A stretch of DNA of 64,000 bases, from positions 335,402-399,401 of the forward strand of contig DAOVJY010000001.1 in the NCBI GenBank assembly GCA_030632085.1, given 5' to 3'. A program made the position numbers and the translations under genes. Position 1 is the stretch's first letter, and the number at the start of each line of letters is the position of its first letter. Positions 48,095 to 52,432 of this stretch are shown piece by piece. The stretch is from Candidatus Omnitrophota bacterium (GTDB lineage: Bacteria > Omnitrophota > Gorgyraeia > JAGLLT01). Under the pieces are notes generated by a model. The model saw only the letters and a program-made list of their open reading frames with translations. It was not told the origin of the DNA and made no database searches.

Positions 48095-51000
48095 TTACCA
48101 GTTTATACCAACGTCAGGGCTACGAGGGCCCATCGGGTCGCCGTTTTCAACTTGATCCCCAATGCCTTCTAACATACCTACTGCATCCATAGCTGAACCA
48201 GTAGTTGCGCCGGACAGATCTGCTCCTCCAGCTAGAACATTGAGCCAGAAATCCTCCCACCACTCATCCCACCATCGCTTCTCCTGCTCCTTCTCAAGCT
48301 GCCTTTTCCTCTCTGCTTCTTCCGGAGTTAAGCCTTCCTCACTTTCTTCTTGCTCTTCAAGTTCCTCTAATTCCTTTTCTATCTCTTCTTCCGTCATCTC
48401 CCCGGGGTCTTCGGGTGCCGGCTCTTTATAATATCCCCAGGGGTCTGTGTAGTTTACAGGGTCATTTGAGCAGTAGGCGTAGAGGTTAATTCCTCCAAGA
48501 TAGCCTATGGGGTCGGTTGTCAAAAATCTCCCTAAATCCGGATCATAATACCTGGCTCTATAATAATATAAACCTGTCTCAGTATCAAGCCTTCTTCCTG
48601 TGAAGAAATATGGATTAGAAAGGCCGGATTCAGATAAAGGCTTACCTTGGCCATCAGTTATAGAGACTTCACCATAAGCATCATAGCTATACTTCTCAAC
48701 TAACTCACCGGATGAGTCTGTAATCTCAGTAACGCTTCCTAAAGCATTATAGTGGTAATAATGGGTGATGGCGGATGGCGTATAGCGGGTGGCGGATAGG
48801 ATTTCATCTATTCTGGCACCGTGGACATACTTAGCTATGGTGTTTCCATTGGCATCAATTTCTAAAATAACATCAGCGCCGTCATAGAGGTATCCGGTAA
48901 TTATGCCGGCTATGTTTTTCTCTATCCTTCTGCCATAAGCGTCATACTTATAATTTATAGTCCGCGCTGGAGTAATTACTTTAATTAATCTGTTCTCATA
49001 GTCATAGGAATAATAAATTATTCCTTCAGGAGTAACTTTTTGAGTCGTATTGCCATTGGCATCATAGCGATAAGTAACATCACCTACGGTCTCGTATTGA
49101 TTCATATTATTAGAAGTAGAGCCAATAGTAACACCATTTGCTACAGAAAGCCTATTGCCGGCGGGGTCTAATTCATAGATATTTTTGAATTCAAAAGGAG
49201 ATGATCCGGGGTTTAAAGACTCAGTAACCGGGTCTTCTACGTTGTATTTGACATTGGTTAATTGATAAGTCTTGTCATAGGTGTAGACATCACCTCTTCC
49301 TTGTTCGTGTTCTCTAATAACATATCCGCGATTACCTACTTCATCATAACCATATGTAAAACCAGAGATAAGTTGTGAAGAAGGAGAGCTATTAGATATA
49401 TTAGTCAGCTGATACAGCTCATTATAGGTATAAGTTGTAGAGGTATTATTTAAGAGGCCTTTTTCTTTTCGTAGGTTAACTTGCGGATCATAGGTATAGT
49501 CGACTATAATATGGCTTGCCTTGTCCTTTATCCGCTTTACCCGATTAAGCTTATCATAATTATAGGTGATAAAATCAGAGTCCGGATAGACTAGTTTAGT
49601 ACGTGAACCCAAACCGTTATATTTATAGCCTATGGTATTACCATCGGGATAAGTTACCTGAACCACTCTTCCTAATATATCATAAGTATAATGTATAGTT
49701 CCAGTTAAGTTTCTGATGTCAGTTAATCTGCCTCTACCATCATAAGTATAGCCTACTGTTGATGCATCCGGATAGGTCTTTTTAATAAGCCTTCTTAGAT
49801 AATCATACTCATAATTTATAGCTTGCTTCTTCTGGTCGGTTCTGCGTATACGAAATGCTTTATTAGAAATATCGTATTTATATTCATTGGCCTTTGTGGT
49901 TCCGTCTTCGTAGGTGGTAATTAAGAGTCTGTTTATTTCATCGTAGGTGTATTGGGTTTGATGGCTATTGGCATCAATAAGCTTTTTGAGGTTTGAGTTT
50001 TCATCGTATTGGTACTGAGTGGAGTTACCTAAGGCATCGGTTGTTTTCTTTAATCTATATAAAGCGTCGTATTCATAGGTAGTGGTATTATTATTAGCAT
50101 CGGTTTTACTTAAGGGGTTGTCAACTTTATCATAGGTGTAAGAAGTAGTGTTCCCCTGAGCATTGATTATCTTCCATAATCTGTCTAAGCTATCATATTT
50201 ATAGGTGGTGGTATTTCCCCGCCCGTCGATTATCTTGATCCTGTTTCCCGCCTTATCATATTTATAAGTAGTGATGTAGCAATCTTTCTTACTTAACCAC
50301 TGATAAATATTTATCAAACGGCCTAATTTATCGTATTTGTAAGTAGTAATATAAATAACCGGTTTTTTGGGCTTGGTCTTGTCAATAATAGTAGTAGTTA
50401 TAAGATTGCCGGATAAATCATACTTATATTCTGTAGTATTTCTTTTGGCATCGGTTATTTTTTTAAGTCTATCCACCTCATCATATTTATAGGCGGTTGT
50501 GGTGTTCTTGGAATGCAGAATGTTTAAATTATCGGTTATGGTCAAAGTAATGAGATTGTCCATTCCATCGTATTTATATTTAATGGTATTTCCTTGAAGG
50601 TCTCTTATTCGGGTTAGTCTATTTAGCGTATCATAGTTGAAGGTTGTAGCATTCCCCTCAGGGGTAGTCTTGTTTTTTAAATTACCGAGAGCATCATAGG
50701 TATTGATAGTCTTGTTACCCAGCGAATCTACCACCTTGGTTAAGTTACCATATAAGTCATATTCATAGGTAGCGGTGTAGTTACCATCTGGATTTTCAAC
50801 ATTCCCCTTGGGTTCGGTTTTTGTTTTCAATAAACCATTTGGGTAATAGGTATAACTGGTGATAATTTCCTCTTCGCCTAACATCTTTTTGGTCTTTAAG
50901 AGATTTCCATTAGAGTTGTATTTGTGGGTAGTGATATTTTCTTCGGGGTCGGTGAGAGTTTTTATTTTATTAAAATCAGAACAATAGGTATATGTCCAGG

Positions 51001-52432
51001 TGTGGCGGATATTGTCTTTGTCCGGCGGACTGGTCTTGGTATGCGTATTACCATCTTTATAGGAAGTATAGTTCCATGTATGGCCATTGACATCAGTAGC
51101 AGAAGTTAAATTTAGTTTATTGTCCCATGTTTTGTGAGAGGAATTGCCATAGGCGTCTATTGACTTAACGACTTTGTTATTCTTATAAAATTCTGTTGTA
51201 ATATAGCCACGCGGACTGGTTTTGATAATTTTGCCTTCGTCATCACAATATTCATAACTTACCTTATTATTGTTATTGTCATTGTATTTGGATTTAAGCC
51301 GCCCATCAGGATAATAGCTAAGGTAGGTATGATAACCCCTGGGGTTAGTGATAATAATGAGGTTATGCCTACTGCTATATTCAGCGGTATTATATTCATA
51401 AGTAGTCTCATGGCCGGCAGGATTGGTATATTTTATGAGATTGCCGATTGAGTCGTATTCGTAATTAAAAGTTCTTCCTGTAAAGTCAGTGATGGTTTTA
51501 ATCTTGCCATTAGAATAAGAAGTAAAGGTAATCACTCTGCCTGAGGTGTCAGTAATGGTAGTAAGAAATCTATTAGAATAACTTAGAATAAGCTGATTGC
51601 CGCTTAAATCCCGGATAGAGCTGAGGTTGCCGCTTTTGTTGAAATTATAACTGAGGTTATTGGGCCTCTTTAGAGTAAAGGTGCCATCCGGGTTTTTGAT
51701 TAACGTCATACGGCTGCCAAGAGGACTATTATATGATCCATCCGGGTTTTTGATAAAGAAGTTCCAGATATCTCTCTCATCCCATAACTGAACATTGCCG
51801 TCCTCCACCTCCGCGATGTGCATATTATAATTATGCGTCCAGTTGTATCCCATGGAGCCGTCGTGCTTCATATCGTTTAGATAATACCTTTCAAATTTCA
51901 AAGGTATGCCTATTGAGGGGATAGAGAAATCCGTCTCTAAGTGAGTGCCATAGTGAGCCGGAGGCGGCCCAAGGATTAAAGAGATGGTCAGGCGGGGGTC
52001 TTGTTTTGAACCATCCGCATTAGTCTGTCCTTTTGCGTCGGTTAAAGTAGCGGCGACTATATAATCATTGGCTACGCCTAAACCATGGGTGTCCCAGTGG
52101 CAGAAGTAATATGAGCCGCGCCCGATTTTAGTGATATTTATTAACCCTGAATCATAATTTTGAGATAAAGATGTGACCCTTATTACACCTGAGACTATAT
52201 CGCGGGCATTGTATTTTTCAGTAACGCTGAACTTGACATAAGAACCTATTGGGTATTCATTATCTTTATCAGCACCTACATAGGAACAGACATCCTTGAT
52301 TGCAGGCGGCTTATCTGTTGCGGCAGAAACGGCATTCACAAAAGAAAGCAGGGAAAATAAACAAAAAACCGCCAAGGTTAATATTAACTTAAACCCTAAC
52401 GGTCTATTATTCTTGTTCTTTACAGAAAGCAT
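48095..52432 (-). CDS. RHS/YD-repeat polymorphic toxin precursor with Sec signal peptide, DUF6531-like N-terminal region, RHS core (DPxGx motif) and an unrecognised C-terminal tip
   Basis: dozens of YD repeats (YEYD..GNL, YKYD..GR); LETDFSIPSIGIPLKFERYY...GYNWTHNY (DUF6531-like); RHS core end DPIGYLGGINLYAYCSNDPVNYTDPWGY; 111-aa acidic/W-rich/Gly-zipper tail. Confidence 0.85.
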   Translation of the reverse strand: MLSVKNKNNRPLGFKLILTLAVFCLFSLLSFVNAVSAATDKPPAIKDVCSYVGADKDNEYPIGSYVKFSVTEKYNARDIVSGVIRVTSLSQNYDSGLINITKIGRGSYYFCHWDTHGLGVANDYIVAATLTDAKGQTNADGSKQDPRLTISLILGPPPAHYGTHLETDFSIPSIGIPLKFERYYLNDMKHDGSMGYNWTHNYNMHIAEVEDGNVQLWDERDIWNFFIKNPDGSYNSPLGSRMTLIKNPDGTFTLKRPNNLSYNFNKSGNLSSIRDLSGNQLILSYSNRFLTTITDTSGRVITFTSYSNGKIKTITDFTGRTFNYEYDSIGNLIKYTNPAGHETTYEYNTAEYSSRHNLIIITNPRGYHTYLSYYPDGRLKSKYNDNNNNKVSYEYCDDEGKIIKTSPRGYITTEFYKNNKVVKSIDAYGNSSHKTWDNKLNLTSATDVNGHTWNYTSYKDGNTHTKTSPPDKDNIRHTWTYTYCSDFNKIKTLTDPEENITTHKYNSNGNLLKTKKMLGEEEIITSYTYYPNGLLKTKTEPKGNVENPDGNYTATYEYDLYGNLTKVVDSLGNKTINTYDALGNLKNKTTPEGNATTFNYDTLNRLTRIRDLQGNTIKYKYDGMDNLITLTITDNLNILHSKNTTTAYKYDEVDRLKKITDAKRNTTEYKYDLSGNLITTTIIDKTKPKKPVIYITTYKYDKLGRLINIYQWLSKKDCYITTYKYDKAGNRIKIIDGRGNTTTYKYDSLDRLWKIINAQGNTTSYTYDKVDNPLSKTDANNNTTTYEYDALYRLKKTTDALGNSTQYQYDENSNLKKLIDANSHQTQYTYDEINRLLITTYEDGTTKANEYKYDISNKAFRIRRTDQKKQAINYEYDYLRRLIKKTYPDASTVGYTYDGRGRLTDIRNLTGTIHYTYDILGRVVQVTYPDGNTIGYKYNGLGSRTKLVYPDSDFITYNYDKLNRVKRIKDKASHIIVDYTYDPQVNLRKEKGLLNNTSTTYTYNELYQLTNISNSSPSSQLISGFTYGYDEVGNRGYVIREHEQGRGDVYTYDKTYQLTNVKYNVEDPVTESLNPGSSPFEFKNIYELDPAGNRLSVANGVTIGSTSNNMNQYETVGDVTYRYDANGNTTQKVTPEGIIYYSYDYENRLIKVITPARTINYKYDAYGRRIEKNIAGIITGYLYDGADVILEIDANGNTIAKYVHGARIDEILSATRYTPSAITHYYHYNALGSVTEITDSSGELVEKYSYDAYGEVSITDGQGKPLSESGLSNPYFFTGRRLDTETGLYYYRARYYDPDLGRFLTTDPIGYLGGINLYAYCSNDPVNYTDPWGYYKEPAPEDPGEMTEEEIEKELEELEEQEESEEGLTPEEAERKRQLEKEQEKRWWDEWWEDFWLNVLAGGADLSGATTGSAMDAVGMLEGIGDQVENGDPMGPRSPDVGINW

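Follow-up and report, generated by a model that had tools for sequence, protein, structure and literature searches.

The WapA protein of Bacillus subtilis is a Sec-dependent contact-dependent inhibition toxin of the Rhs family that carries nuclease tips and is followed directly downstream by the small immunity gene for WapI. A protein of comparable build, in which a predicted N-terminal Sec signal takes the place of a PAAR or type VI secretion system (T6SS) link and a YD-repeat shell leads into an RHS core and a variable tip, is encoded on the minus strand of a 64,000-nucleotide stretch of DNA from a Candidatus Omnitrophota bacterium (GenBank assembly GCA_030632085.1, contig DAOVJY010000001.1, positions 335,402 to 399,401 of the forward strand), referred to here as the window (for the Rhs-family context of the comparison see PMC4436062; PMC3967940). 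The window protein differs from WapA in that its tip appears to be a non-enzymatic acidic helical module taken from a resident gene, the next gene encodes a 514-amino acid (aa) secreted TPR-like protein, and the open reading frame (ORF) has been clipped by an insertion sequence (IS). The interpretation favored here, held with about even confidence, is that an exported RHS shell gained a new tip when its gene became fused in frame with the 3′ half of a resident gene, and that the IS clipped the ORF later.

Other described systems share parts of this arrangement. T6SS-linked Rhs effectors and the TcB/TcC cocoons of Tc toxins likewise combine a closed YD shell with a DPxG...DPxG aspartyl self-cleavage motif that frees a C-terminal cargo; the window protein departs from them in its predicted Sec signal and in a cargo that matches no toxin family. 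It also departs from them in its surroundings, as no T6SS, type VII secretion system, PAAR, VgrG, or TcA-like gene or domain was found among the annotated window genes, a set that leaves unscanned most ORFs at about 9.5–16 kb, three short ones in the first 8 kb, and the final ~1.6 kb. IS elements are associated with the rhs loci of Escherichia coli and Salmonella, where the rhs 3′ end is a hotspot both for these elements and for tip replacement. Orphan modules at rhs loci have been described (PMC3967940). In the window, by comparison, the tip would be part of a resident syntenic gene and not an orphan toxin cassette, and the IS lies in the last codons and supplies the stop. Teneurins, the membrane-anchored, multi-domain YD-shell proteins of eukaryotes, are derived from bacterial toxins and offer a likeness by analogy only, in that the YD shell has been kept and the classical toxin function of the tip altered or lost.

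The RHS ORF is divided as follows:
48095..52432, minus strand: RHS/YD-repeat ORF of 1445 aa in its present form, of which residues 1–1441 are native and residues 1442–1445, like the stop, come from the IS.
52319..52432, minus strand: predicted Sec signal peptide, residues 1–38, with likely cleavage after VSA, from hydropathy and n/h/c layout only.
51776..51937, minus strand: DUF6531, residues 166–219 (Pfam, E 1.1e-11).
48683..51745, minus strand: YD/RHS repeat shell region, about residues 230–1250, from Pfam, NCBIfam, and a motif count.
48431..48685, minus strand: RHS repeat-associated core, residues 1250–1334 (TIGR03696, 91 bits), in which DPIGY...DPWGY is the expected self-cleavage site.

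The 1445 codons run without interruption on the minus strand from 52432 to 48095. The repeat region is matched by PF05593 (RHS_repeat, Pfam) over 15 stretches with an E value of 7e-89 and by TIGR01643 (YD repeat, NCBIfam) with an E value of 2e-60. The TIGR03696 match covers residues 1250–1333 and profile positions 1–75 of 76, which makes the core complete, and inspection of the sequence gives its end as TTDPIGYLGG...NYTDPWGY. At the N-terminus, a basic stretch (MLSVKNKNNRPLGFK) is followed by a 17-residue hydrophobic core (LILTLAVFCLFSLLSFV) and by NAVSA, with cleavage expected before the next A; this n/h/c arrangement is that of a predicted Sec-type signal peptide, as judged from sequence features. 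By these domain tests the ORF is a genuine RHS/YD shell protein of the Sec-signal type, predicted to be exported through Sec, to fold as a closed shell, and to cleave itself after DPWG. An earlier reading of the sequence (the first-pass annotation) had described a 1445-aa Sec-signal RHS/YD ORF with DUF6531, ~40 YD repeats, a DPIGYLGG...DPWGY core, and no T6SS, type VII, PAAR, or VgrG genes nearby, and this description is borne out: the domains were found, the core motif is present on re-inspection, and the repeat number, set beside 25 strict Y.YD motifs, is a fair estimate for ~1000 residues at ~21 aa per repeat.

The base composition of the ORF is uneven. The plus-strand GC skew lies between +0.04 and +0.17 over the RHS body (48500–52000) and is negative in most of the flanks, where nearly all genes lie on the same strand; the skew probably reflects the Tyr/Thr/Asn/Asp-rich composition of the repeats and not a foreign origin. 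The 3′ end of the ORF (48000–48999, covering the core end, the tail, and the IS junction) has a GC content of 0.44, the maximum of the region, compared with 0.35–0.39 in the body, partly owing to GAR-rich Glu codons.

The contig is metagenome-assembled, and IS copies and repeats are typical sites of misassembly, which raises the question of whether a chimeric assembly brought the RHS gene together with a resident small gene and a copy of the IS. The same 1445-aa protein is recorded from three assemblies (an ENA scaffold of 349 kb, an NCBI contig of 414 kb, and Logan), with an identical product across both the core/tail and the tail/IS junctions, and the window contains no second copy of either the IS or the tail. 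The contigs on which the identical protein is called comprise one of 20–50 kb and two of 0.2–1 Mb. Because three assemblies carry the same full-length product, a chimera is considered hardly credible.

Evidence on the origin of the tip comes from the C-terminal end of the protein:
48110..48430, minus strand: native C-terminal tail, residues 1335–1441, consisting of an acidic helical linker and, after it, the module WWDEWWEDFWLNVLAGGADLSGATTGSAMDAVGMLEGIG...; its homologs are small secreted coiled-coil proteins that occur free-standing, in their C-terminal half.

The 107 native residues that follow DPWGY fall into two parts, an extremely acidic linker with a net charge of −15 and the segment WWDEWWEDFWLNVLAGGADLSGATTGSAMDAVGMLEGIGDQVENGDPMGPRSPDV, whose net charge is −10 when the four IS-derived residues are counted; as it stands, with the IS residues, the tail is 111 aa long with a net charge of −25. 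A single-sequence AF2 model predicts helices at tail residues 14–29 and 36–67 with a pLDDT of about 80, followed by a low-confidence region. Searches of Pfam, NCBIfam, and PDB sequences returned no toxin family and nothing above coiled-coil noise for the tail, and an amphipathic or membrane-active helix in the W-rich segment is unsupported, the hydrophobic moment reaching at most 0.32. When the last 62 residues were searched exhaustively with HMMER against 1.84 billion representatives, the sole real relative was P0122 (E 3.3e-5, 51% identity), a 175-aa protein with its own signal peptide, a coiled coil, and a C-terminal end reading EEWWEWLWLNVLARLADLASATSGSATGAADEAEGIKN....

Two further small proteins of this kind, encoded at loci L012 and L016, align with essentially the whole tail. 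The tail is 35.5% identical to the L012 protein over 107 aa (pairwise E 3e-11) and 32.7% identical to the L016 protein over 107 aa, and the latter alignment stops at tail residue 107, that is at V1441, which is the IS junction. The L016 protein ends just four residues past that point, as ...PTGPRAPSVWGVE and a stop, compared with ...PMGPRSPDV followed by GINW and a stop in the window. A hidden Markov model (HMM) built solely from the three free-standing modules, whose consensus is W.WL..L..AD.SGATTGSA...EGI, scores the RHS tail at 42.6 bits (E 6.5e-12) and scores none of 24 other RHS homologs. The three free-standing small proteins are mutually homologous along their full length. The RHS tail is thus, by alignment and profile, homologous to the C-terminal half of small signal-peptide coiled-coil proteins, and the first-pass assumption that it is a toxin finds no support. 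The tail of P0002, the nearest RHS relative, was also tried as a relative on the strength of a pairwise BLAST hint and was rejected when its family HMM score fell below that of shuffled controls.

The small proteins do not occur alone. The P0122 gene lies 74 bp upstream of a gene for a 522-aa protein without a Pfam match, and the intact gene that follows the RHS ORF in the window encodes a protein 62% identical to it from end to end:
45592..47136, minus strand: 514-aa protein whose N-terminus resembles a signal peptide by inspection and whose model is an all-helical, TPR-like repeat; ortholog of the tail-module partner and a candidate binding partner or immunity protein.

Identities of the 514-aa protein to the other partner proteins are 69–70% for P0124, 60–61% for P0125, and 63–65% for P0126. 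This ~520-aa family comprises just four clusters among 5.8 billion proteins, and at each of its loci the gene 69–74 bp upstream encodes a small protein that has a hydrophobic N-terminus and a coiled coil and carries the C-terminal module seen in the tail. The pairs found are:
L008/9/10/19: 175-aa small protein and 522-aa partner.
L012–15/18/20: 191-aa small protein and 519-aa partner.
L016/17: 200-aa small protein and 521-aa partner.

Judged by these alignments, the 514-aa protein is an ortholog of the gene that always follows the tail module. Since the tail is homologous to the small protein and the 514-aa protein is orthologous to its partner, homology makes a conserved pair of the RHS tail and the intact gene that comes next, parted only by the IS remnant. 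The first-pass annotation had called this neighbor an unrelated TPR protein, whereas its family supplies the conserved downstream partner of the module in three other lineages. No Pfam TPR match was found in the 514-aa protein at E≤0.01, its relatives have just "faint" precomputed hits, and its AF2 model is all-helical with 26 helices at low confidence (pLDDT 59.5). The best Foldseek matches of that model are all TPR proteins, with TM-scores of about 0.25 that amount to a generic TPR likeness, so that a TPR nature is plausible at the level of a low-confidence model. The conserved tail module would be a ligand of the TPR-like partner and not an enzymatic toxin. A small secreted coiled-coil protein coupled to a ~520-aa TPR-like protein is a very narrow gene pair that is undescribed, as would be the capture of such a pair's module by an RHS core.

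The direction of change is suggested by the lineage represented by L012, the closest related one found, in which IlvB is 89% identical to its window counterpart, a 232-aa membrane protein 84%, and a protein of 168 aa (173 aa in the window) 66%, with ilvBNC nearby in both. This lineage has the free-standing small gene and no RHS gene upstream of it. Its gene order (300–7200) runs from the 168-aa gene through the 232-aa gene, a 43-aa gene, the small gene, the 519-aa gene, a PD40 propeller gene, and a TPR_6 gene to ilvBNC. The window order, compared over 41263–47136, runs from the RHS ORF with its fused tail through the IS remnant, the 514-aa gene, two IS200-like genes, and genes for 232, 173, 299, 267, and 1118 aa to ilvBNC. 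The PD40 gene of L012 has no homolog in the window, nor does the N-terminal half of the small gene appear elsewhere in the window. Because the L012 lineage carries the free-standing gene without RHS and the free-standing proteins are homologous along their full length, the fusion is most simply read as derived, and the fused state in the window is probably the derived one.

Under re-tipping by fusion, the original RHS toxin tip and its small immunity gene would have been lost, and the RHS body would have replaced the signal peptide and the first part of the coiled coil of the resident small gene, leaving its remainder in frame behind the RHS core. The join may have arisen by illegitimate recombination within Glu-rich linker sequence. 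The first ~25 residues of the tail (MTEEEIEKELEEL) resemble the tail start of the RHS homolog P0006 (MSDEEIEKLVEEF), with 41% identity over 22 aa and a pairwise E of 0.001, and this resemblance is suggestive of a breakpoint within Glu-rich helical sequence that both parents had in common. The TPR-like partner would have stayed next door and probably binds the conserved module. The lack of a small immunity gene would then follow, because no classical toxin is left to neutralize.

The second event concerns the end of the ORF, which overlaps an IS remnant:
47248..48109, minus strand: IS481-like remnant, about 862 of about 1290 bp, with the transposase start at 48026 behind an AAGGAGG ribosome-binding site.
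48058..48109, minus strand: left inverted repeat of the IS481-like element, of which 48095–48109 encodes the G-I-N-W-stop of the RHS ORF; the repeat is conserved in L003 and L004, where the DNA flanking it is unrelated.

The boundary of the element was set by aligning the window with two transposase relatives that include the left end, L003 (80% aa identity) and L004 (70%, from an Omnitrophota metagenome-assembled genome). The conserved IS sequence starts GGTAYAAACTGGTAACATAG... at window position 48109 and is preceded by unrelated DNA at each of the three loci. Read as its inverted complement, this starting sequence matches the right ends of L003 and L004 (TGTGCAAC...ACATGGTTTACA). The terminal inverted repeats are about 50 bp long and imperfect, and the L004 element is flanked by a 4-bp target duplication, CCAT. 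The IS overlaps the last 15 nt of the RHS ORF, whose frame at the junction reads ...CCT GAC GTT on the native side and GGT ATA AAC TGG TAA on the IS side; with the left inverted repeat beginning at 48109, the codons G1442-I-N-W1445 and the stop belong to the IS, and the preserved native protein ends at V1441. The first-pass annotation had placed a frameshifted IS481 transposase downstream with its limit at 48047; the remnant is real and frameshifted, and it reaches 48109, so as to supply the last four codons and the stop of the RHS ORF. The remnant carries a 1-nt deletion at 47361/47362 and can be matched to the intact relative only as far as about 47248; the 3′ ~430 bp are gone, and with them the right inverted repeat. 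On the favored interpretation, an IS481-like element would have inserted a few codons before the end of the already fused ORF, its inverted repeat providing GINW-stop, and would then have decayed by frameshift and loss of its 3′ third.

In its helix-turn-helix and rve DDE transposase, ~50-bp imperfect inverted repeats, and 4-bp target duplication (L004), the element resembles the IS481 family, from which it is set apart by its scores and, in the window copy, by the missing 3′ third and the frameshift. The best NCBIfam model of the window transposase, NF033577, scores 123.6 bits, short of the cut-off of 224 because the copy is truncated. The intact L004 transposase (386 aa) also has NF033577 as its best model, matching positions 2–283 of 284 at 202.1 bits, and because this intact relative too is below the cut-off, the element is called IS481-like and not IS481. 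Searched against plasmids, the IS DNA gave no match. The closest IS relative, the L003 copy (161–940), is also a pseudogene, with a stop at codon 19, and among the loci fetched an intact transposase was seen in L004 only. Within the left inverted repeat, at 48059–48104, are two 21-nt direct repeats spaced 25 bp apart (TGTAAACGATGTATCTTGTTT and TGTAAACTATGTTACCAGTTT), which recur in the right ends of L003 and L004 and are probably transposase-binding subrepeats. As an IS inverted repeat that supplies the stop of a large ORF, the junction is a clean example of its kind, and annotation pipelines would call the ORF intact.

The RHS family to which the shell belongs is widespread in uncultured Omnitrophota, Planctomycetota, "Aureabacteria," and other groups, and the nearest relative of the window protein, P0002, is just 39% identical to it. 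Among the closest RHS homologs, the P0002 gene is followed by a 140-aa ORF that overlaps its stop (ATGA) and has four hydrophobic stretches by inspection, and P0006 by a 165-aa ORF 60 bp downstream; small genes in this position are the classical arrangement for this RHS clade. Two small PD40/Tricorn-like β-propeller fragments (164–165 aa) lie after P0006 at L021 (7910–8407 and 8986–9480) and may be immunity-type genes; a PD40-repeat protein is also encoded directly after the 519-aa gene in the L012 lineage.

In the window the corresponding slot holds the IS remnant and then the 514-aa gene, and, as the first-pass annotation had noted, no small classical immunity ORF. That annotation accounted for the absence by an intact RHS toxin whose small immunity gene had been displaced or destroyed by the IS or is encoded elsewhere, with the 514-aa protein unrelated. 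The IS remnant does sit where P0002 and P0006 have their small downstream genes, and adjacent DNA could have gone together with the ~430 bp lost from its 3′ end. The sequence left between the remnant and the 514-aa gene bears on this proposal:
47137..47247, minus strand: non-IS spacer of 111 bp with a ribosome-binding site (AAGGAA) and one promoter-like match, of a length that fits the lost 3′ end of the tail plus a ~70-bp spacer.

In the relatives, the partner gene begins about 84 bp (L016 type) to about 128 bp (L008/L012 type) after the codon equivalent to V1441, and because the 111 bp of remaining native sequence falls within this range there is no room by length for a lost gene. In all relatives, moreover, the tail homolog adjoins the 520-aa family with a spacer of only 69–74 bp, the tail carries no toxin signature, and the RHS ORF is itself clipped by the IS. 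The 140-aa membrane protein of P0002, tried as a candidate for the lost immunity gene, has no homolog in the window (tblastn, nothing better than E 2.9). This proposal is accordingly judged improbable. The spacer was also aligned to the relatives for a leftover 3′ end of the tail ORF; the DNA similarity is marginal, with the best scores reached in 18–34 of 1000 shuffles, and is not relied on. In positional terms, the downstream gene that the first-pass annotation had looked for in related genomes does exist: immediately 3′ of every relative of the tail module lies a gene of the ~520-aa family, and the window has this gene too. Lacking a recognizable toxin domain, and followed by a 514-aa candidate immunity gene in place of a small one, the ORF is filed as an RHS-family shell with an atypical tip derived from a resident gene and not as a demonstrated polymorphic toxin.

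The same position of the ~520-aa gene leads to a different proposal, namely that the tail module and the TPR-like protein form a genuine, undescribed toxin/immunity (or cargo/neutralizer) pair. The module would be delivered either free, as a Sec-exported coiled-coil protein, or within the RHS shell, and the immunity gene would be present in the window, separated from the module by the IS. Several observations that support such a pair weigh at the same time against fusion followed by clipping. One module occurs behind two N-terminal export contexts with a conserved gene directly downstream, which is the classic toxin/immunity signature and the criterion by which polymorphic toxin systems are defined (PMC4436062). 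The fusion lies within about 7–30 residues of the canonical end of the core, after DPWGY, where genuine tip swaps occur, a position unexpected for a random deletion. The 4.3-kb RHS ORF has stayed open although the adjacent IS has decayed, which hints at selection for a working protein. Also to be counted against fusion and clipping is that only parsimony and length exclude a further gene having been lost along with the 3′ end of the IS. For the pair it can be added that signal peptides on both proteins would place both in the envelope.

A toxin/immunity pair fits less well with other properties of the locus. The small gene and its partner are inherited in synteny with housekeeping ilvBNC across lineages and are not strain-variable, and at about 520 aa the partner is far above the usual size of an immunity protein. 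The module is short, strongly acidic, and not notably amphipathic, lacks an enzyme signature, and was found on no other RHS or toxin scaffold, whether among the 1.84 billion representatives or the 24 RHS homologs. A genuine toxin/immunity pair is regarded as the main alternative, possible but unlikely. In a particular form of the proposal, which is doubtful, the W-rich ADLSGATTGSA module and the ~520-aa protein would be a new cargo/neutralizer pair that exists both free-standing and RHS-encapsulated, the shell having recruited a resident envelope protein; if true, this would be a direct example of RHS tips being invented from host genes and not swapped from existing toxin pools.

Under fusion of the shell to the resident gene, the puzzle of an RHS toxin without immunity is removed, as the tip is not a recognizable toxin, the end of the ORF is IS-derived, and the neighbor is the partner of the tip. 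If the tail is active, the locus would be a case of an RHS shell that has drawn its cargo from a resident gene.

Beyond these genes, the annotated genes of the window are mostly housekeeping, among them alr, tsaB/E, a thiL-like gene, metG, ilvBNC, aro genes, topA, and glnS/gltX. The region next to the pair is a rearranged one, as marked by IS200-like genes:
44557..45488 (44557–45228 and 45231–45488), minus strand: two IS200-like Y1 transposase genes (PF01797), one of 223 aa and one an 85-aa fragment, directly after the 514-aa gene.

At L020, a 317-aa ORF (833–1786, minus strand) whose N-terminal sequence is similar by inspection to a Y1 transposase adjoins the corresponding locus. The 1118-aa protein (37880–41236, plus strand) has a weak CBM30 match, a Glycoamylase match, and faint TPR matches, and its C-terminal part is distantly similar, at about 22–28% identity, to the TPR_6 genes found beside the partner gene at L012 and L016. 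Near the start of the window, a DUF2971 protein (321–1118, minus strand) and a protein with an MqsA-like helix-turn-helix and a SocA/Panacea antitoxin domain (1606–2655, minus strand) may form a toxin-antitoxin or defense-related pair unrelated to the RHS locus.

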